Of a DNA stretch of 25,205 bases, positions 492-25,205 are shown in pieces. This stretch comes from a virus. Its lineage: Duplodnaviria; Heunggongvirae; Uroviricota; Caudoviricetes. The DNA lies in IMG/VR virus record IMGVR_UViG_2541047688_000007, positions 1 to 25,205 of that record. One strand, 5' to 3'. The notes under the pieces are model-generated. The model saw only the letters and a list, made by a program, of their open reading frames with translations. It ran no database searches and was not told where the DNA came from. Every line of letters begins with the position of its first letter. Position 1 is the first letter of the stretch. The position numbers were made by a program, and so were the translations under genes.

Positions 492-965
492 TTATTTCAG
501 GCACTGAGTGCGGATATAGTCCTGTGCCCCTTCCAGTTGCTTGTGCATCGTCATCAGCCGCTCTCTGAGGGTGAAATAATCCCGTGTAACGGTGTCTGCC
601 AGTTGGGGGCCGGTTGCATTATCCACGCCGGAGGTGGTGGGGGCTTCACGCACGGAGCCTGGACAGGTGGCGTTGATCCGCAGGCGCTTACGACCAGCGG
701 CAACATCAGCGCGCAGAGTTTCATTTTCAGCTCTCGCATCGGATAATTCCCTCGAGTATTTTGCATCGAGCGCAGCAACATCGCGCTGGCGCACCTGCAT
801 ATCAGTAATGGTTGCGTTCGCCAGCTTCAGTTCACTGGCTTTGTTATCGCGCTGCGCTTTGTAGGTAATCGCGTTATCACGGTAATGGTCTGTTGCCATC
901 CACAGCGCACCACAGGCCACCAGCAGAATAACGATAAACGCGGAAAGCATTCGGTTTATGTTCAC
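492..965 (-). CDS. Rz: i-spanin Rz (inner-membrane spanin subunit)
   Basis: 157-aa ORF with N-terminal TM segment and clear by-eye similarity to lambda Rz ([27 protein letters not shown]); apparent GTG start at 963-965 overlapping the stop of the upstream small ORF (GTGA); alternative ATG at 948-950. Confidence 0.85.
554..739 (-). CDS. Rz1: o-spanin Rz1 lipoprotein, embedded in the +1 frame of Rz
   Basis: Embedded [25 protein letters not shown]... with lipobox (VSAC) and proline-rich [11 protein letters not shown] core as in lambda Rz1; start chosen at internal Met by analogy with lambda Rz1 length (~60 aa); track ORF 554..781 is the unprocessed reading frame. Confidence 0.7.
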
Positions 966-1107: not shown

Positions 1108-1290
1108 TCACGATTTCAACGCAATGACCAGTTTTGCCAGCCCATACAGCATCGGGGACACAGCAACACCGACCGCCACCCACTTAATGGCAAAAGCCAG
1201 TGCTCTGCTGATGTCATCAGTTACAGGCGCTTTCAGTTCAAGGCCATTTTTCATAGTCAACCTCAACAGAATTCGTTTATACTTCGCCAT
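1108..1290 (-). CDS. hypothetical small membrane protein (60 aa)
   Basis: ATG at 1288-1290 preceded by AGGGAG SD; [60 protein letters not shown], hydrophobic C-terminal half; the track start at 1323 lies inside a terminator hairpin and was not used. Confidence 0.35.
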
Positions 1291-1320
1291 GTTCTCCCTT
1301 GCCTTACTCAAGGTCAGAAA

Positions 1321-1360
1321 CACAAAACCCCGCTTGGTACCAACAAACGGGGTTTTTACT
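1321..1360. terminator. bidirectional rho-independent terminator-like hairpin between endolysin and downstream small ORFs
   Basis: CCCCG (1328-1332) pairs with CGGGG (1348-1352) around a palindromic TTGGTACCAA core; T-run follows on the plus strand (1353-1357) and A-run precedes (1324-1327), giving a T-run on both strands. Confidence 0.35.
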
Positions 1361-1446: not shown

Positions 1447-1980
1447 TTATCTGTCGATTCCCCAGCACGCCAGCGCGCTCTCCTGGTCACGACGGGATAC
1501 CTGACCATAACAGTTATTTGAGCGGATACGGCAGTCTCTGCCACCGTCCTTAATCCACCAGCGAATCGCCTCACACGCTCCCCTGCGATCACCTGCATTA
1601 ATTCGTTTATAAAACGTCGACGGGAAACACTTACCGGGACCAATGTTGTACGGACAGAATGACGCGATCCCCGCTTTCTGGGGTTCACTCAATGGCACTC
1701 TGATGTTTTTCTCCACCCATGCCAGCGCCTTATCACGCTCAATGGCGTTAACCCGGTCGCATTTTTCCTTCGACAACTTCATGCCCGGGACGACAGGTTT
1801 ACTATCCACCAGGATGGCACCGCGGCAGATGGTCCAGATACCCGCGCCATCACGGTATGCCGTGGTGTGGTTACCTTCCTTTTCATCCAGAAACTGGTCG
1901 AGGATTTCAGGCGCAGGCGCACCTGCGGCAATCAGCGCCAGAACGGCAGCCGACAGGCCGTATCTGATTTTTGCGTTCAT
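1447..1980 (-). CDS. R: endolysin, GH24 T4-lysozyme-like muramidase with N-terminal SAR/signal-anchor segment
   Basis: 177-aa ORF; catalytic E-x8-D-x5-T signature (EGNHTTAYRDGAGIWT); Gly/Ala-rich hydrophobic N-terminus (GLSAAVLALIAAGAPAP) as in SAR endolysins that partner with pinholins. Confidence 0.85.
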   Translation of the reverse strand: MNAKIRYGLSAAVLALIAAGAPAPEILDQFLDEKEGNHTTAYRDGAGIWTICRGAILVDSKPVVPGMKLSKEKCDRVNAIERDKALAWVEKNIRVPLSEPQKAGIASFCPYNIGPGKCFPSTFYKRINAGDRRGACEAIRWWIKDGGRDCRIRSNNCYGQVSRRDQESALACWGIDR

Positions 1981-2043
1981 GGATATTTATCAGGATTTAT
2001 CGGTTTCTGCCCACGGACAGGTTTATCTGTTCTGGTCAGTGAC

Positions 2044-2394
2044 TTAAGGTTGTGATTCCGGAGGAGTCTTCAGAGAACCAGTAATTCTTCCTGGTAGCTT
2101 TCCTTTGTAGGTTATCCACACATTCTGCGCCTCTAAAATTACGGGGCGCTTTTCCGGCGACTGCTCATCCCCTTCACATAACCCGGCAGCAACATCCAGG
2201 AAGACCTGTCTGATGCTCCTTCTGGCTGCTGCCTCATAAAACCCCAGCGCGGCACCTTCAACACGGTCCAGCGAGATGTCCAGGTCAAAAATTTCACCGT
2301 CAAAGCGTTTTTTGTCCCGTAACGCTAAAGTTACCGTAACTTTATTCTCAAAATTGCGGATCCCTTTCACAATCAGTTCATAGTTTTGAATCAT
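2044..2394 (-). CDS. hypothetical soluble protein (116 aa) inserted between holin and endolysin
   Basis: ORF starts 5 nt after the holin stop with GGAGAG SD ~7 nt upstream of ATG 2392-2394; hydrophilic sequence, no TM segment, no recognised motif. Confidence 0.5.
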   Translation of the reverse strand: MIQNYELIVKGIRNFENKVTVTLALRDKKRFDGEIFDLDISLDRVEGAALGFYEAAARRSIRQVFLDVAAGLCEGDEQSPEKRPVILEAQNVWITYKGKLPGRITGSLKTPPESQP

Positions 2395-2398
2395 TGAA

Positions 2399-2614
2399 TT
2401 ACTCTCCCCGCGCAGCCTTACGACGGTCCTCTCTGATTTTGAAATACAGGTTAGTCAGATATGTCAGGAAGCCCAGAACCAGACTCCCCAGTACACCAAT
2501 CGCAGCCCACTGTGACGGACTGACCTGATCAAGCCACTGTAAAAACCAGTAGCCAGCACTGCCTGCGGAGGTGCCGTAGGCAATGCCCGTTGAAATTTTA
2601 TCCATGGATTTCAT
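2399..2614 (-). CDS. S: holin, phage 21 S21-type pinholin (class II, dual-start)
   Basis: 71-aa product [71 protein letters not shown], which I recognise as essentially the phage 21 pinholin; dual-start motif M-K-S-M; strong GGAGGTGA SD; track ORF 2399..2713 over-extends upstream. Confidence 0.85.
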
Positions 2615-2779: not shown

Positions 2780-2785
2780 GCATGT

Positions 2786-2815
2786 AAAAAGGCCCCAACA
2801 CATGTGCGTGGGGCC
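2786..2815 (-). terminator. rho-independent terminator-like hairpin upstream of the lysis cassette
   Basis: Minus-strand GGCCCCA...TGGGGCC 7-bp stem with 11-nt loop followed by TTTTT (plus-strand A-run 2786-2790). Confidence 0.4.
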
Positions 2816-3015
2816 TGAGAGTATACATGGTTTCAGTCAACTGCATGGTGCCGGGTGCCTCCCGGTGAATTCAGTACCAGCACCTGAATCCGCGATTATC
2901 CCATATACCTACTCGCTGATTGCCCCTCCGCACAGGGGGATTCACCATGCCAGTTTCTTTTAACAAACTCCCCGCAAACCAGACAACAGTCAACCGCCTG
3001 AATTGTGAGACATTT

Positions 3016-5004: not shown

Positions 5005-6162
5005 ATGACCACACTCAAAGAACTCAAAGAAGAGCTTGCTCAGATTCAAGATGAAAACGCGAAAAATAGAAAAAAAGCTGAAATTGCAGCCTTGGTCACT
5101 TCTGCCGACAACGAGATTAGGCTTGCTCAGAGAAATATTGGATACAACGTACGTGAATGGACCGTTGAATTAATTGTACAAAAGTATGGCAATAATCTTG
5201 AAACTGACAAAAACGAACTTTTTATTCCTGATTATCAACGCGATTACAAATGGGATATCAAAACAGCCTCTCGATTCATCGAAAGTATATTATTAGATTT
5301 TCCAATCCCGTACCTCTACATCTCCGACGTATTTAATGAAGATCCTGAGTTGGATGGTCGTGTAGAAATTATTGACGGTTCACAAAGGATTCGCTCAATT
5401 TACTACTTTTGGAACAATCAGTTTGAATTGAAAGACTTAAAAGAACTCAAAAGTTTAGAGGGCTTCAAATTTTCAGATCTTTTGGCTAGCCGCCAGAGGC
5501 GATTTTTAAGGGCATCACTAAGATTTATTGAATTGAAAGGTGATGTTGAGGAGCAGCATAGAAGAGATTTATTCGAAAGAATAAATTCAGGTGTTAAGAG
5601 ACTGGAAGCGATGGAGGTTAGACATGGTTCAGATGCGGCCACTTCAATTTTCTATAGGGATGTTGTGACTCCTTGCTCAACAAATCCACTTTTCGCTAGT
5701 CTAGCTCCATTATCAGATCGGAAACGTTCGAATGGCGATCATCGTGAGTTAGTTTTGAGATTTTTTGCATACTTAAATGATTTAGAAAATTATAAGGGTT
5801 ATGTCGCTCCTTTTATTGACAATTATCTTAATGTTCAGGCCGAAAGGGTCACACAACAAGATGTAGACAAATTTAAACATGATTTTGAAAGCATGCTTGC
5901 TTTTGTAGATGCTCATTTCCCTATGGGGTTTAAAAAGACACCAACAAGCAAAACCACCCCCCGTGCTAGATACGAAGCCATAGCAGTGGGAACTGCTCTT
6001 GCCTTAAAAGCCAATCCACATCTACAGGCTCCGGTTATTCCTGTAGGAGACTGGCTGTTTGGGGAGGAATTTGAAACCATAGTTACTGCTGATAGTGCCA
6101 ACAACACCAGCCAACTCAAAAACAGAATATTTTATGTCAAAGATAAATTATTAGGAATGTAA
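5005..6162 (+). CDS. DUF262 (ParB/Srx-like) domain protein, GmrS-type N-terminal module without recognisable DUF1524 nuclease domain
   Basis: 385-aa ORF; DUF262 signatures FIPDYQRDYKW and IIDGSQRIRS (DGQQR-type motif); no His-Me finger motif seen in C-terminal half; AT-rich codon usage. Confidence 0.75.
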   Translation: MTTLKELKEELAQIQDENAKNRKKAEIAALVTSADNEIRLAQRNIGYNVREWTVELIVQKYGNNLETDKNELFIPDYQRDYKWDIKTASRFIESILLDFPIPYLYISDVFNEDPELDGRVEIIDGSQRIRSIYYFWNNQFELKDLKELKSLEGFKFSDLLASRQRRFLRASLRFIELKGDVEEQHRRDLFERINSGVKRLEAMEVRHGSDAATSIFYRDVVTPCSTNPLFASLAPLSDRKRSNGDHRELVLRFFAYLNDLENYKGYVAPFIDNYLNVQAERVTQQDVDKFKHDFESMLAFVDAHFPMGFKKTPTSKTTPRARYEAIAVGTALALKANPHLQAPVIPVGDWLFGEEFETIVTADSANNTSQLKNRIFYVKDKLLGM

Positions 6163-6164
6163 CT

Positions 6165-6854
6165 ATGAGTTTGATTGATTTAAGAGATGAATACGAAGAA
6201 AGAGCAAGAGATATTATGGAATTGCTTTCTCTTGCGTCATCTTTAGAGGCTCAGACTCAGCAGTTAGATCAGCAAACGCATAAAGATGAAATAGAATCAA
6301 ATACCCTTAGGGTTAACATTTTAAAATCATCCGTGCACATGATGCTGTACAATCAGGTTGAAAACACTGCCAGAGGATGCATTGAGTCAATTTATGACCA
6401 TTTGCAAGATAATGAAGTAAATTACGCATCACTCAGGGAGAAATTCCAAGTAAATATCTTGCACCGTATCATTTCAGATAATGAATCGGGAAAATCTCTT
6501 TATCAAAAAATTGGTTCCGATATATCTAAAAGGATCATTTCAGCCTCATTAAACATACGTAAAGAATTCAATGGTAATGTTTGCAAGTCTGTATTGCACA
6601 AAATAACACAAGCTTACGGAATAACTGTTGCAAACTCACCAGAGTGTAGAAATGGTGTTGACTTAGATTTACTTAAAGATATCAGAAATGAGCTGGCACA
6701 TGGAAGTACCAGCTTTTCTAAAAAAGGTCAAATAGACCCTTTAGAAGAAGTCAAATCGAGGTCAGAAAGAATTGATCTATATTTGCGTTTATTAATCAAC
6801 TCAACAGAAAATTATATTACCTCTAACGGGTATTTATCCCCTCAACATGTCTGA
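6165..6854 (+). CDS. HEPN-like domain protein (putative RNase/abortive-infection effector)
   Basis: 229-aa ORF starting 2 nt after the DUF262 stop; C-terminal R-x4-H-G motif DIRNELAHG (residues ~174-180) typical of HEPN superfamily; assignment from motif only. Confidence 0.6.
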   Translation: MSLIDLRDEYEERARDIMELLSLASSLEAQTQQLDQQTHKDEIESNTLRVNILKSSVHMMLYNQVENTARGCIESIYDHLQDNEVNYASLREKFQVNILHRIISDNESGKSLYQKIGSDISKRIISASLNIRKEFNGNVCKSVLHKITQAYGITVANSPECRNGVDLDLLKDIRNELAHGSTSFSKKGQIDPLEEVKSRSERIDLYLRLLINSTENYITSNGYLSPQHV

Positions 6855-7926: not shown

Positions 7927-8295
7927 TTACATAGAACTTAAGTCATTGTAGTAAATGAAAAATGACAAGCAGCCATCAATAAACCCCATTGCTGTTTGCA
8001 TCTCTTTCCGTATTGTTCCATCTGAACATTTCCGTTTTTTAGCAATAGCGCGTAATGAGATACCAATAACAAAGTGAGCAATGATCAACTCATACTCTTC
8101 GGGTTTATACTTTCGCAACCGAGCCACACAACCGTCTATCATGATACCTTCGTCATCATCACACTGGAGACGTGACTTTTTACCGTGTGGTAAAAGCCCC
8201 TTGAAGCCTGCTGCTATCGGCTGCCAGTCCACACCACTGTTATCTGCTGCAGCCCAGGCCCCCCAACGATCTAAAACTTCGTACATATCACGCAT
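7927..8295 (-). CDS. Q: late-gene antiterminator Q (phage 82/QuuD-like family)
   Basis: 122-aa ORF MRDMYEVLDRWGAWAAADNSGVDWQPIAAGFKGL... with Cys-rich zinc-binding-like region; resembles the small Q proteins of phage 82 and the DLP12 prophage as I recall them; last gene of the coupled early operon. Confidence 0.7.
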   Translation of the reverse strand: MRDMYEVLDRWGAWAAADNSGVDWQPIAAGFKGLLPHGKKSRLQCDDDEGIMIDGCVARLRKYKPEEYELIIAHFVIGISLRAIAKKRKCSDGTIRKEMQTAMGFIDGCLSFFIYYNDLSSM

Positions 8296-12003: not shown

Positions 12004-12194
12004 GGACGCACCTCCGCCGTAGTTACGTATTTAACCGGGCTACCTTTCATTGAGATGGTTTCACACATCTCTGCCGCTTTCAGTTCCGCTGTTTTTCTGG
12101 ATTTATAGCGACGGTGCCAGACAGATACATCCGTGCGAACTGATACATCGTTTCTGTATTCCGTAGTGGAGATGATGATTTCGTAACTAATCAT
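12000..12194 (-). CDS. hypothetical protein (64 aa)
   Basis: ORF with ATGA overlaps to both neighbours; no recognised motif. Confidence 0.4.
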   Translation of the reverse strand: MISYEIIISTTEYRNDVSVRTDVSVWHRRYKSRKTAELKAAEMCETISMKGSPVKYVTTAEVRP

Positions 12195-13042
12195 GGGCGA
12201 ACCTCCTTGTCAGAACCATTCAGCCTGGAATCAACAAGTGCAGCGCCAAAAACAGCATCACCAACACGGTCGTACAGTTTGCTAGCCAGCGGAGATTCAA
12301 CGGCCTTAAGCATTGGATAAAGCTGGCTTGTCCAGATTTGATGGATTTCACGCAAATGCAGGTATACGCCTCTGGCGTTTCGTGCGACAGCTGACATATC
12401 AGACGTATCGGCACCTGATAAACTCTTCTCCATCAGGTTAAAGGCGTTGATGTATGCCTCTTTGAACCGGGCAGCACGTTTACCAGTGAAGCCCATGGCA
12501 AGGAACGCGAAGCCATCGCGGGTGATTTGATAGCAAGGTAGTTTGCGGCCTGATGCGTCGGTGTATTCACTTAACACAAAATTGTGTTCAGTAAATTCAG
12601 CGGAACATTCGAGGTTTCTAATTCTATCTAAAACCCGCTCATGCCGTTTAGTAAAGTAATTAGCTACTGCAAGAGATGTGGTGACAACGCGACCATTGAT
12701 AATCGTGATTTCAGGGTGAGATTGGGTTGGGAGAGTAGTCATGGTGACAGCCCCTATGTTGAATTCAATGAACTCACCACCAAGGCTTTCCACGACCATA
12801 TAGGTGGTGAGACGTACAGGGGTGGAAATACCGGTCAACATAGAACCCGGCCCAACCGAAGTTGGCCCTGCACGCCCCACCATAATTTGGGCGTAACGAT
12901 GCTCATGACACGAAAAAACCGCATGAGCGCGGTTGTGCTCTATATTGAATTTCGGGTTTCCACGCCCGGCACCCGCTTTATAAGGTGCAGAGACAGTGTA
13001 ACGTCCCGAAATTGCAGAATCAATATGCTGGTGGCGGATCAT
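12191..13042 (-). CDS. Rha-family phage regulatory protein (paralog 2)
   Basis: Core ITIINGRVVTTSLAVANYFTKRHERVLDRIRNLECSAEF...ITRDGFAFLAMGFTGKRAARFKEAYINAFNLME matches the Rha (Phage_pRha) pattern as I recall it; ~100-aa N-terminal extension whose first residues are shared with the upstream paralog. Confidence 0.7.
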   Translation of the reverse strand: MIRHQHIDSAISGRYTVSAPYKAGAGRGNPKFNIEHNRAHAVFSCHEHRYAQIMVGRAGPTSVGPGSMLTGISTPVRLTTYMVVESLGGEFIEFNIGAVTMTTLPTQSHPEITIINGRVVTTSLAVANYFTKRHERVLDRIRNLECSAEFTEHNFVLSEYTDASGRKLPCYQITRDGFAFLAMGFTGKRAARFKEAYINAFNLMEKSLSGADTSDMSAVARNARGVYLHLREIHQIWTSQLYPMLKAVESPLASKLYDRVGDAVFGAALVDSRLNGSDKEVRP

Positions 13043-13701
13043 AGGTGCACCTCCCGTTGATTACGACGGAACGCGGAGTGACCCTGGACGGTTTCAGCCT
13101 CATGGAATGCTTCAATACAGCTCTCGTAGTACCGCATTGTGCGCAGACTTAACCCAAGCTGAAGCATCATCAGACCATCAAGGGTGATGTAATAACCACG
13201 CAGGGAGTCACCGTAGATGTGATAAGTACCCGGTATGAAATTGCGGGTAAAAAACTCGCGTGAGCAGTTCAGATACTCGATTTTGTCGACGATGTTCTGG
13301 TGCATGCGCTTAAAGTGGCAGGCAACATGCAGGGAGAAAATAACGGCCTTGCCGTTGACAACTTCAATTTTGAGGAATGGGGAAGTTGGGACTGTAGCCA
13401 TGATGGCAGCCTCCGTTGACTGTGGAAAACTTCCACCACCGGAGCTGCGAAACTCACTGGTGGCAGACTGAACAGGGTTCGCAGTACCGGCGTCAACGGA
13501 GACCGGCGAGCCTTTCGGCTCCCCTGCCCAGCCCACCATAATTCTGGCGTGCGTGAGCGCGGACGATAAAAAAGACGCTGGCGCGTCATATATCGCCGTT
13601 GACAATTCCGGGCTGCGACCCCCGGCACCCGCTTTATAAGGTGCAGAGACAGTGTAACGTCCCGAAATTGCAGAATCAATATTTGGTCTTGAAATGATCA
13701 T
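13039..13701 (-). CDS. Rha-family phage regulatory protein (paralog 1, divergent)
   Basis: Core EVVNGKAVIFSLHVACHFKRMHQNIVDKIEYLNCSREF...ITLDGLMMLQLGL resembles the Rha domain; N-terminal DSAISGRYTVSAPYKAGAG shared with the downstream paralog. Confidence 0.6.
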   Translation of the reverse strand: MIISRPNIDSAISGRYTVSAPYKAGAGGRSPELSTAIYDAPASFLSSALTHARIMVGWAGEPKGSPVSVDAGTANPVQSATSEFRSSGGGSFPQSTEAAIMATVPTSPFLKIEVVNGKAVIFSLHVACHFKRMHQNIVDKIEYLNCSREFFTRNFIPGTYHIYGDSLRGYYITLDGLMMLQLGLSLRTMRYYESCIEAFHEAETVQGHSAFRRNQREVHL

Positions 13702-15210: not shown

Positions 15211-15321
15211 TCTTTAGTCTCACACCAGATACTTTGTTATCCAACGATGTTAACCACAGGAATCCAAAGTATCAAGAAATTCTGTTACTTTAGTATCAAC
15301 AGCCATGAGAGGAGAAGAAAA
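15211..15321. promoter_or_regulatory. immunity-region operator/promoter zone (divergent PR/PRM-like)
   Basis: Intergenic region between the cro-position ORF and the cI-like gene; ATACTTTG (15229-15236) and its inverted copy CAAAGTAT (15265-15272), plus imperfect 26-bp palindrome 15266-15291. Confidence 0.4.
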
Positions 15322-15978
15322 ATGAAGTCTTTAGGTGAACGTCTCATCAACGCACGGCAAAAAGCTGGGTTAACACAAGATGCGTTGGCTAAAAAAGCTG
15401 GGATCACCAGAGTTGCAATCAGTAAAGCCGAGCAAGGCCTTACAAAAAGTTTCAACGGTGACACCCTTTTTAAAGTTGCAGCTGCACTGCGGTGTTCACC
15501 GCAGTGGCTTCAGAACGGAGATGAAAAAGATAAGCATTGGGAAAATAATGTTAAGAGCTGCCCACAGAGAGACACAGCACACTCTTACCCTGTAATTAAC
15601 TGGGTTCAGGCAGGATTATTCGCAACTTCTGGTGATGACTACAACATGTATGATCAGGATAATTGGAGGCATTCTGTAAAATACGCTGGTGAGAGGGGGT
15701 TCTGGCTGGAAGTGCACGGAGACTCAATGACTTCGCCCGTAGGAATAACATTTCCTGAAGGAATGTCGATCCTTGTCAACCCAGATAAAGAAGTTTTTTC
15801 AGGGTGTTACGTCATCGCCAGAAAAAAATCTACCAATGAAGCAACATTCAAAAAATATATTTCTGACATGGGAAAGGCGTTTCTAAAGCCCCTTAATCCA
15901 CAATATCCAATCATAGAAATGGACAATGATTGCGAAATAGTAGGTGTTGTGGTTGATGCCAGGTGGGATATTTTCTGA
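15322..15978 (+). CDS. CI-like prophage repressor (XRE HTH + LexA/S24 peptidase domain)
   Basis: ATG at 15322 with GAGAGGAG SD; N-terminal HTH (LTQDALAKKAGITRVAISKAEQG), C-terminal S24 autopeptidase with GDSM Ser motif and downstream Lys (ATFKKY); track ORF from 15247 over-extends. Confidence 0.85.
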   Translation: MKSLGERLINARQKAGLTQDALAKKAGITRVAISKAEQGLTKSFNGDTLFKVAAALRCSPQWLQNGDEKDKHWENNVKSCPQRDTAHSYPVINWVQAGLFATSGDDYNMYDQDNWRHSVKYAGERGFWLEVHGDSMTSPVGITFPEGMSILVNPDKEVFSGCYVIARKKSTNEATFKKYISDMGKAFLKPLNPQYPIIEMDNDCEIVGVVVDARWDIF

Positions 15979-22188: not shown

Positions 22189-22520
22189 AGAATGAATAAA
22201 GCATTTGAACGATGGGTCCACCAGCGTTACGGCAATCGCTATGACCTGACGCGAGATGTTGACGGCTTCTACTGTCGTGAAGTTGTGAAGCGAATGTTTG
22301 AAGTGTGGTGCCACTGCCGTGGGCTGAGTGTTGTGTGAGGTAATACATGGGCAATGTGATTCAACTGGCTCCCAATGAATGGGTTTGTGAAAGCGTTCTT
22401 ATCGCAATTACCGGGCTCAAACCAGGCACAATTCTTCGGGCCCGGAAATGAAGTGGTTTACTGAATTTGGCCACCTGAACAGAGGTGATATGCTCACCTC
22501 AGAACAACACAGGTGCCATA

Positions 22521-23668
<1,148 letters not shown>

Positions 23669-23891
23669 CTCGGTGGCCAGTTTTTGTTGACCACTTCAAA
23701 AGAATGCTGGATGGTTGGAAGAGAGTATATTCACGTATCACCAGACGGTAATCCAAAGCCTTCCAGTGAATGTATGTATAACAGAAAAGCAATAGATGCC
23801 TGGGTCGCCTCAATGAAAAACAAACAACCCAGGTGATTTAATATCATGAAATATGTAAGCTCGTATCGCTCTTGGGCGTCTGGAGGTATCG

Positions 23892-25205
23892 ATGGATAAA
23901 GTCAAATATCCAACAGGCGTCGAAAACCACGGCGGCACATTACGCATCTGGTTTAATTTTAAAGGTAAACGTGTCAGGGAAAATCTTGGTGTCCCTGACA
24001 CTGCCAAGAACAGGAAGATCGCCGGGGAACTGCGGACATCAGTATGTTTTGCCATCCGCACAGGAAGCTTTGATTATGCTGCACAGTTCCCTGACTCCCC
24101 CAACCTTCAGGCTTTTGGGGTAAGTAAAAAAGAAATTACGGTGAAGGAACTTGAAGAAAAGTGGCTGGATCTGAAACGAATGGAAATCTCTGCAAATGCA
24201 TTCAATCGCTATGAATCCGTTGCAAGAACGATGGTTCCGAAAATTGGAGGCAGTAGACTGGTGTCATCGGTAACCAAAGAGGAATTGCTGTATATCAGGA
24301 AAGATTTGCTGACCGGGTATCAGAATTCAACGAAAAACAAAGCAGCAGCAAAAGGACGGAGCGTCGTTACTGTAAATTATTACATGACGACAATCGCTGG
24401 AATGTTTCAGTTTGCTGCAGATCACGGTTACTTAGAAGCAAATCCCTTCCAGGGAATTAAGCCTCTTAAAAGAGCCAGGGCAGAGCCAGATCCGCTAACT
24501 CGTGACGAATTTATTCGCCTGATAGATGCTTGCCGACATCAGCAGACGAAAAACCTGTGGTCATTGGCTGTGTACACAGGAATGCGTCACGGTGAACTGG
24601 TCTCCCTGGCCTGGGAAGATATCGATCTGAAGGCAGGAACAATTACCATCAGGCGCAATTATACGAAACTTGGTGAGTTCACTCTACCGAAAACTGAAGC
24701 AAGCACAAACAGGGTTGTGCACCTTATCCAGCCCGCTATCAGTGTCCTGAAAAATCAGGCTGAAATGACAAGACTGGGTAAGCAGTACAACATCAAGGTG
24801 CAACTACGTGAATATGGACGTTCAGTGAACCATGAATGTACTTTCGTGTTTAACCCTCAAGTGGTTAGAAAAAGCGAACAGGTAGGTTTTGTCTACAAAG
24901 TCGATTCTGTAGGTGACTCATGGGAAACAGCCATTAAGCGTGCAGGGATCAGGCATCGAAAGGCATACCAGTCACGACACACTTATGCGTGCTGGTCATT
25001 ATCTGCCGGAGCAAACCCAAGCTTCATTGCCAGCCAGATGGGCCATGCAAGTGCCCAGATGGTATTCAATGTATACGGAGCATGGATGACTGACAGCAAT
25101 GCAGAACAGATCGCAATGCTGAATCAGAAGCTGACAGATTATGTCCCAATGATGCCCCATAGTCACCAAAGTGACACCAGAGGCTTATTAAAATCAGTAA
25201 GTTAA
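23892..25205 (+). CDS. int: tyrosine site-specific integrase (phage integrase family)
   Basis: 437-aa ORF with GGAGG SD; N-terminal arm-binding-like region; catalytic residues in TGMRHGEL (Arg), HRKAYQSRHTYA (His/Arg) and VYGAWM (Tyr); complete, stop TAA at 25203-25205. Confidence 0.9.
   Translation: MDKVKYPTGVENHGGTLRIWFNFKGKRVRENLGVPDTAKNRKIAGELRTSVCFAIRTGSFDYAAQFPDSPNLQAFGVSKKEITVKELEEKWLDLKRMEISANAFNRYESVARTMVPKIGGSRLVSSVTKEELLYIRKDLLTGYQNSTKNKAAAKGRSVVTVNYYMTTIAGMFQFAADHGYLEANPFQGIKPLKRARAEPDPLTRDEFIRLIDACRHQQTKNLWSLAVYTGMRHGELVSLAWEDIDLKAGTITIRRNYTKLGEFTLPKTEASTNRVVHLIQPAISVLKNQAEMTRLGKQYNIKVQLREYGRSVNHECTFVFNPQVVRKSEQVGFVYKVDSVGDSWETAIKRAGIRHRKAYQSRHTYACWSLSAGANPSFIASQMGHASAQMVFNVYGAWMTDSNAEQIAMLNQKLTDYVPMMPHSHQSDTRGLLKSVS

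Follow-up and report, generated by a model that had tools for sequence, protein, structure and literature searches.

A YdfR-family gene between the holin and endolysin genes of a lambdoid Escherichia coli prophage: an optional late-operon gene with a possible role at RNase E or RNA

The gene between holin and endolysin, and its family

What does an extra gene do between the holin gene S and the endolysin gene R of a phage 21-type lysis cassette? The DNA analysed here (25,205 nucleotides, hereafter called the window) is a lambdoid Escherichia coli prophage read from the end of its late region, and the gene in question occupies positions 2044 to 2394 on the minus strand. The first-pass annotation had described its product as an unrecognised soluble protein of 116 residues lodged between a pinholin and a signal-anchor-release endolysin, and had proposed that it is either a modulator of lysis timing or a moron expressed at lysis. 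The cassette is composed as follows.

2399..2614, minus strand: S21-type class II holin (pinholin), 71 aa, dual start M1/M4; PF04971, E 8.6e-36
2402..2407, minus strand: Shine-Dalgarno sequence GGAGAG within the last holin codons, read from the sequence
2044..2394, minus strand: ydfR-family (DUF1327) gene, 116 codons plus stop; ORF list, PF07041 and phrog_406
1981..2043, minus strand: spacer from the ydfR stop to the R start, 63 nt, without a Shine-Dalgarno-like tract before R
1447..1980, minus strand: endolysin R (lysozyme family), 177 aa; PF00959, E 2.3e-23, and phrog_7 (endolysin)
492..965, minus strand: Rz spanin; PF03245, E 7e-47, and phrog_13
554-781 (ORF): Rz1, embedded in Rz; from the ORF list, the lipobox start position being probable

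Both neighbours had been named correctly. The Pfam family matched by the upstream gene is described as 'Bacteriophage P21 holin S', and the lysozyme downstream begins with MNAKIRYGLSAAVLALIAAGAPAP and carries an Ala/Gly-rich N-terminal segment, YGLSAAVLALIAAGAPAP, of the signal-anchor-release type. On the coding strand, the sequence upstream of ydfR reads ...GGGGAGAGTAATTCAATG, in which GGAGAG lies 7 nt 5' of the ATG and the holin stop TAA is followed by TTCA and then the ATG; the gap is thus 4 nt where 5 nt had been given, and the earlier description of the start site was essentially right. The protein also proved to be soluble as proposed: its peak Kyte-Doolittle hydropathy over 19 residues is only 0.69, so that it has no membrane segment. 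Neither promoter-like nor terminator-like sites were found flanking ydfR on the minus strand, nor was a terminator-like site found between S and R on that strand. The 4-nt gap and the lack of a terminator-like site between S and R imply that ydfR is co-transcribed with both genes, as had been suggested.

The protein is virtually certain to belong to the YdfR/DUF1327 family. Residues 1-112 align to positions 1-92 of the 93 in PF07041 (DUF1327) with 139.6 bits and an E value of 3.9e-41, against a Pfam cut-off of 25 bits for this family, and PHROG 406 (phrog_406) is matched with an E value of 1e-66. E. coli SCU-387 carries a copy with 100% identical DNA that RefSeq annotates as 'YdfR family protein'. 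The length of the ORF would by itself say little, as the window holds 59 ORFs of at least 90 aa; that it is a genuine gene is seen from the Pfam score, from near-identical proteins, which sit in clusters of about 1000 member sequences, and from the dN/dS of its core (see below).

The gene is common in the host species. The ydfR DNA alone was present in 4349 of 5426 complete E. coli genomes (about 80%), in up to 10 copies per genome, and megablast with the whole stretch from S through the ORF to R matched 4896 of the 5426, with at least 80% of the stretch covered in 2536; the annotation under these matches reads 'class II holin family protein | YdfR family protein | lysozyme'. The cryptic prophage Qin of K-12 has the gene order essQ-ydfR-rrrQ-rzpQ, which is matched by the order in the window. 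Among phages, DUF1327 was found in 101 records, including many Stx1a, Stx2a and Stx2c phages as well as H-19B, YYZ-2008, Stx2-86 and mEp460, and the family is thus a constituent of lysis cassettes in Stx1 and Stx2 phages and in Qin. The gene is therefore neither unrecognised nor without a known motif: it belongs to a family that is routinely annotated and present in most E. coli genomes, and it is a known, conserved component of such cassettes, K-12 Qin having ydfR at the same position. The earlier label arose because the sequence had been read without databases, and finding the gene is by itself a minor result.

Beyond this assignment, the searches returned little. Only 89 clusters were recovered when 1.84 billion representative proteins were searched exhaustively with HMMER, by which count the family is small, and NCBIfam has no model for it. 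When 32 family members were scanned against Pfam with E values up to 10, no second family recurred; DUF6408 appeared in five and ROF in three, all with non-significant E values. Sequence and profile searches of the PDB with YdfR found no relative, the lone match being eL18 (E 0.28), and PADLOC-DB, with E up to 0.1, returned nothing for the window protein, its distant family members or three of the convergent partner ORFs described below. A canonical lysis protein (holin or antiholin, endolysin, spanin) was considered and rejected, since the protein has no transmembrane segment and DUF1327 is its sole Pfam domain. A double-stranded RNA-binding domain was likewise rejected; the window protein lacks the combination of an alpha-beta-beta-beta-alpha order, an N-terminal helix and a structural match by which that fold was judged.

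The rest of the prophage includes replication genes, two DNA methyltransferases and three tRNAs, together with the following elements.

23892-25205: integrase
15247-15978: cI-like repressor
7927-8295: Q
12191-13042 and 13039-13701: Rha/Ash-domain genes
12800-12988 and 13456-13644, minus strand: C4 antisense RNA and isrK RNA modules, two tandem copies in or next to the Rha/Ash-domain genes
5005-6854, plus strand: GmrSD_N protein (385 aa) and HEPN protein (MAE_28990/RiboL-PSP type, 229 aa), between Q and the lysis cassette
2780-2979, minus strand: match to the STnc100 sRNA family (Rfam), 139 bits, E 6e-31, directly upstream of the holin and downstream of the tRNAs
1108-1323, minus strand: second extra ORF of the cassette, in the R-Rz interval, 71 aa, phrog_1115, with a hydrophobic C-terminal segment
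16692-17941 and 22449-23698: two identical IS3-family elements of 1250 bp, with ends TGAAGTGG...

The GmrSD_N and HEPN genes have the opposite orientation to the late genes and are flanked by C5 and N6/N4 DNA methyltransferases, and the pair is a candidate for a prophage-borne defence module. The doubled C4/isrK region represents a duplicated antirepressor control region of the P1/P7 type. The STnc100 match may be a leader or a short transcript of the late promoter region. The 71-aa phrog_1115 ORF is preceded by a strong terminator-like hairpin of 13 bp (1356-1324, minus strand), and the 481-nt R-Rz spacer in which it lies occurs in 2121 E. coli genomes, where it is annotated as two hypothetical proteins. 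The two IS3-family elements, which we take to be IS911-like, have target duplications of GAAC and AAA and bracket about 4.5 kb of early-region genes; the prophage, laden with IS elements, may be defective.

A conserved core, a variable tail and the start of the endolysin gene

Alignment of the length variants of YdfR showed a shared core of about 72-77 residues (MxxxYELxVKG...DRxEGxxLEFYEAxA...) followed by tails of unrelated sequence, by which the protein varies in length among 103, 104, 114, 116, 176, 183 and 268 aa. In the window the two parts are as follows.

2179..2394, minus strand: conserved core, aa 1-72; from alignments, the AF2 core model, dN/dS and the K-12 comparison
2047..2178, minus strand: variable C-terminal tail, aa 73-116, predicted to be disordered; from pLDDT and homology breakpoints

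The charge is divided in a similar manner, residues 1-77 being acidic (pI 4.9) and residues 78-116 basic (pI 9.8). An AF2 model of the core alone, made with distant homologues included, reached a pLDDT of 86.6 and a pTM of 0.72 and has strands at 5-14, 18-27 and 34-43 and a helix at 50-73, while in the full-length AlphaFold model residues 74-116 have a pLDDT below 50. No convincing structural relatives of the 72-aa core were found. At the DNA level, the left block of homology (S plus core) stops at window position 2234, 2189, 2145 or 2055 depending on the relative compared, and the right block (R) starts near 2005; the variable segment between the two blocks is about 50 nt long in the window and about 900 nt long in Stx2-86. 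Judging from these breakpoints and the models, the tail is probably a disordered appendage that is prone to recombination. The functional unit is the 72-aa core, for which there are both a confident model and stand-alone homologues of 72-76 aa.

A tail of this kind could also be taken as a sign that the ORF is a decaying, non-functional passenger: the C-termini are mosaic and of varying length, truncated and fused entries occur in the databases, and reads from ydfR were nearly absent in K-12 grown under standard conditions (PMC13232886). The core tells otherwise. Its dN/dS (Nei-Gojobori) was 0.19-0.45 in most informative pairs, some close pairs with very few substitutions giving higher values, and this range indicates that the core is under purifying selection as a protein. 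Because most E. coli genomes, and functional phages such as mEp460 and the Stx phages, also carry intact copies, and because homologues are conserved across Enterobacterales, we regard decay as highly improbable.

The gene is optional in S21-type cassettes. An S21-like holin was found in 438 phage records as against the 101 with DUF1327, and there are close relatives in which the endolysin follows S directly, so that the gene had rightly been called an addition to the cassette. The holin protein of phi458 is 100% identical to that of the window, with a 165-aa lysin gene directly after the holin region, and in phage 933W R starts 4 nt after the S stop, at the very junction that ydfR takes elsewhere. 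The junction itself, (A/G)GGAGAGTA(A/G) followed by 4 nt and the ATG, is kept in eight ydfR loci and is the same before R in 933W, where R initiates from GGGGAGAGTAA, 4 nt and ATG, using the S-embedded GGAGAG. Since the passage from S to the next gene is alike with or without ydfR, ydfR holds the strong initiation slot otherwise used by the endolysin. Behind ydfR, in six of seven loci, R is preceded by a leader poor in purines, CCTGATAAATATCCATG, in which no Shine-Dalgarno-like tract is seen; the observation covers the window at 1981-2043 and the R leaders of L001, L002, L009, L010, L012 and L013. The K-12 leader is a close variant, TCATAAATATCTATG, and the R start there overlaps the ydfR stop (ATGA).

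From this arrangement, insertion of ydfR may alter translation of the endolysin, and one could suppose that the effect of the gene is mainly in cis: the ORF would capture the S-embedded Shine-Dalgarno sequence and lower or uncouple R translation, and its protein would matter little. The site that R uses in 933W does serve ydfR here, leaving R with the purine-poor leader. It is, however, the amino-acid sequence of the core that is under purifying selection, and stand-alone homologues with 24-36% identity are kept in other genera and at other junctions; moreover, the spacer between ydfR and R shows no special RNA structure, its predicted fold being no better than that of shuffled sequence (z 0.05). 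A mainly cis effect is thus very unlikely.

Only the constant linkage to S21-type holins in E. coli favours the lysis-timing proposal, in which YdfR would advance or delay triggering by acting either on the signal-anchored endolysin or on the pinholin (e.g., at the short, charged C-terminus that the pinholin has in the cytoplasm). At every E. coli locus examined, ydfR starts 4 nt past the stop of an S21-type holin gene, and S plus core formed one unbroken block of homology in all comparisons. In phiSTEC1575-Stx2k (L011 2281-4299), an S21-type holin gene and ydfR are followed by convergent ORFs and then by an unrelated second lysis set of two holin-family genes and an M15 peptidase, so that S-ydfR is kept despite different downstream lysis genes. 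This phage has two holin systems, yet no lysozyme after ydfR. On the other side, YdfR is an acidic, soluble protein without a membrane segment, and roughly three-quarters (~77%) of the phage records with an S21-like holin do without ydfR. The relatives outside E. coli weigh further on this proposal.

Relatives at other late-operon junctions

Distant DUF1327 members were found in Yersinia and Pantoea prophages; they are 72-76 aa long and 24-36% identical to the window core. Several of them are located among tail genes with no holin adjacent. The gene lies at the tail M/L junction in L006 and L016, the M/L cases including a Pantoea-type cassette; it stands between a tail I-like gene and J in L021, before J in L022, and after an I-like gene in L003, a short contig. 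In L007 it is located about 550 nt upstream of holins of other families. The genes at tail junctions have the same orientation as their upstream neighbour and begin about 20-160 nt behind it, 20-42 nt in four of five cases. A relative in Salmonella enterica (AAOLDM010000022.1; L019 6001-6513) encodes 170 aa with two tandem DUF1327-like domains and is placed at the Q/S junction, with a HicA/HicB pair on one side and an S21-like holin gene on the other; a convergent ORF of 83 aa comes after it.

Because the distant members occupy other late-operon junctions, we consider the core to be a mobile accessory late gene rather than part of the lysis machinery; no one holin or endolysin can therefore be required for the function of the core. 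This leaves the lysis-timing modulator without support. The Salmonella relative also adjoins an S21-like holin gene, though it lies upstream of it, but the Yersinia- and Pantoea-type homologues in tail-gene junctions have no holin beside them, and overproduction in K-12 gave no growth phenotype, in a test that did not include holin induction (PMC13232886). Taken with the many S21-type cassettes that lack the gene, a role in lysis timing appears distinctly unlikely.

A second feature of the distant loci is a small convergent ORF after the DUF1327 gene, within about 30 nt of it or slightly overlapping, which was present in all ten distinct distant contexts and likewise in the E. coli S/R cassettes of three phages (Evi, Stx2-86 and phiSTEC1575-Stx2k). 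These partner ORFs are 58-104 aa long, 58-100 aa in the ten distant contexts. A gap of about 130-200 nt comes after them, by its length large enough for a promoter of the convergent ORF; in the distant loci whose contig includes the next gene it measures 150-230 nt. Two-gene cassettes of this form are seen at L006 511-966, L016 8001-8486, L021 6001-6506 and L022 4642-5086, and further at L019 6001-6789, L009 4989-5528 and L010 2501-3631. Across Enterobacterales prophages the DUF1327 gene almost always has such a follower, and the junctions used are tail M/L, tail I/J, Q/S and S/R. At least six groups can be told apart among the partners, and between these neither BLASTP nor hhalign detected homology; those partners that were scanned had no Pfam or PADLOC match. 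The window, searched by tblastn, contains no convergent partner, and the ydfR genes of K-12 and mEp460 likewise stand without one.

The recurrence of the pair, ten times in ten distant contexts and three more times in S/R cassettes of E. coli, at classic moron sites (tail M/L, tail I/J, Q/S and S/R), would fit a mobile two-gene cassette serving host benefit, exclusion or counter-defence, of which the window copy would be a remnant that has lost its partner. A specific protein pair is made unlikely by the at least six unrelated groups of partners, however; PADLOC defence models match neither gene, the scanned partners have no Pfam match, and in the partner-less copies (window, K-12 and mEp460) the core is still under purifying selection. 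We regard this explanation as unlikely.

The RNase E lead and comparison with known systems

A function for the core itself is suggested by the one functional study on the family that we found, in which K-12 YdfR was studied experimentally (Gopel et al., RNA Biol 2026; PMC13232886). A bacterial two-hybrid screen with RNase G, the paralogue of RNase E, as bait yielded a fragment comprising residues 1-72 of K-12 YdfR three times, and the signals of this fragment were stronger with RNase E constructs; with the full-length protein, RNase E 1-597 was the sole construct to give a signal (PMC13232886). FLAG-tagged RNase E 1-598 co-eluted with Strep-YdfR, and the eluate contained large amounts of nucleic acid resistant to DNase (PMC13232886). 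The authors cautioned that a contaminating protein might explain the retention of RNA by YdfR (PMC13232886). As no nuclease-treated pull-down is reported there, RNA could bridge the co-purification of YdfR and RNase E. Overexpression of ydfR in K-12 changed few transcripts and left growth unaffected (PMC13232886). That paper also cites for ydfR an envelope-integrity screen whose main text makes no mention of ydfR (PMC3879167); an envelope phenotype of a ydfR deletion, if any, could be polar on rrrQ/rzpQ.

By analogy with K-12 YdfR, whose residues 1-72 are 79% identical to the window core, we infer that the window protein may share this binding and that the binding may matter to phage RNA metabolism. 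In the mechanism we propose, ydfR would be transcribed with S, R and Rz on the Q-dependent late transcript and translated from the strong Shine-Dalgarno sequence at the end of S, the site that serves R where ydfR is absent. The core would then work as a cytoplasmic protein in the late stage of infection: by contacting the N-terminal, catalytic half of host RNase E, RNA, or both, it would alter RNA processing or decay, and YdfR would take no part in membrane permeabilisation or murein degradation. That the window core binds RNase E and/or RNA as a cytoplasmic late protein is an extrapolation from the K-12 study, which we make tentatively and at somewhat less than even odds. Overall, the best explanation of the gene seems to be an optional YdfR protein of the late operon with a role at RNase E or RNA, to which we give a probability of roughly 0.4. 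Several points speak against it: the binding comes from a single study with an overproduced, tagged K-12 protein, in which RNA could have bridged the co-purification; overexpression had little effect on transcripts and none on growth; an acidic core (pI 4.9) is atypical as an RNA-binding surface; the PDB has no sequence relative; and the constant linkage of the gene to an S21-type holin in E. coli is not explained by it.

[quoted passage not shown] Such a module would retune host RNA decay late in infection, for example by protecting the long late transcript or by handling the sense/antisense RNA formed with the convergent partner. Should the reported binding to RNase E or RNA be real and of consequence for the phage, YdfR would represent a small phage effector directed at the catalytic half of this enzyme and, for Shiga-toxin phages, a handle on how long late transcripts last and thereby perhaps on when toxin is released and cells lyse. 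The recurrence of a core gene with a convergent ORF at several late-operon junctions provides a concrete comparative framework for this idea.

Among known systems, the closest is YdfR of the K-12 prophage Qin (P76160), which is of the same family, shares the order holin-ydfR-lysozyme-Rz and the junction after the holin, and is 79% identical to the window protein over the core (residues 1-72 of K-12 YdfR). It differs in its unrelated tail, being 103 aa long as against 116 aa with the homology ending near window position 2189, and in the overlap of the ydfR stop with the rrrQ start, where the window has a 63-nt spacer before R. The cassettes of phage 21 and 933W resemble that of the window in the Shine-Dalgarno sequence embedded in S and the 4-nt junction, as seen in 933W, but have no gene between S and R. 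Phage-encoded effectors of RNase E or the degradosome are known, namely T7 gp0.7 and Dip (gp37) of phiKZ; K-12 YdfR resembles them as a small phage protein that is reported to contact host RNase E (PMC13232886).

Lambdoid phages, as in the HK97-like group, carry morons, accessory genes placed between late genes. The DUF1327 gene resembles these in being optional, in its position at late-gene junctions (M/L, I/J, Q/S and S/R) and in its mosaic distribution, and the earlier suggestion of a moron expressed at lysis accordingly fits better than that of a timing modulator, as long as the word is used loosely for an accessory late gene. In the strict sense of a gene with its own promoter and terminator, it does not hold, as the DUF1327 gene begins mostly 4-42 nt past the preceding gene and has no terminator. 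With no room for a promoter and no terminator, the gene is a passenger of the operon and not a self-contained transcription unit, and it is the convergent partner ORF that fits the definition of a moron better.
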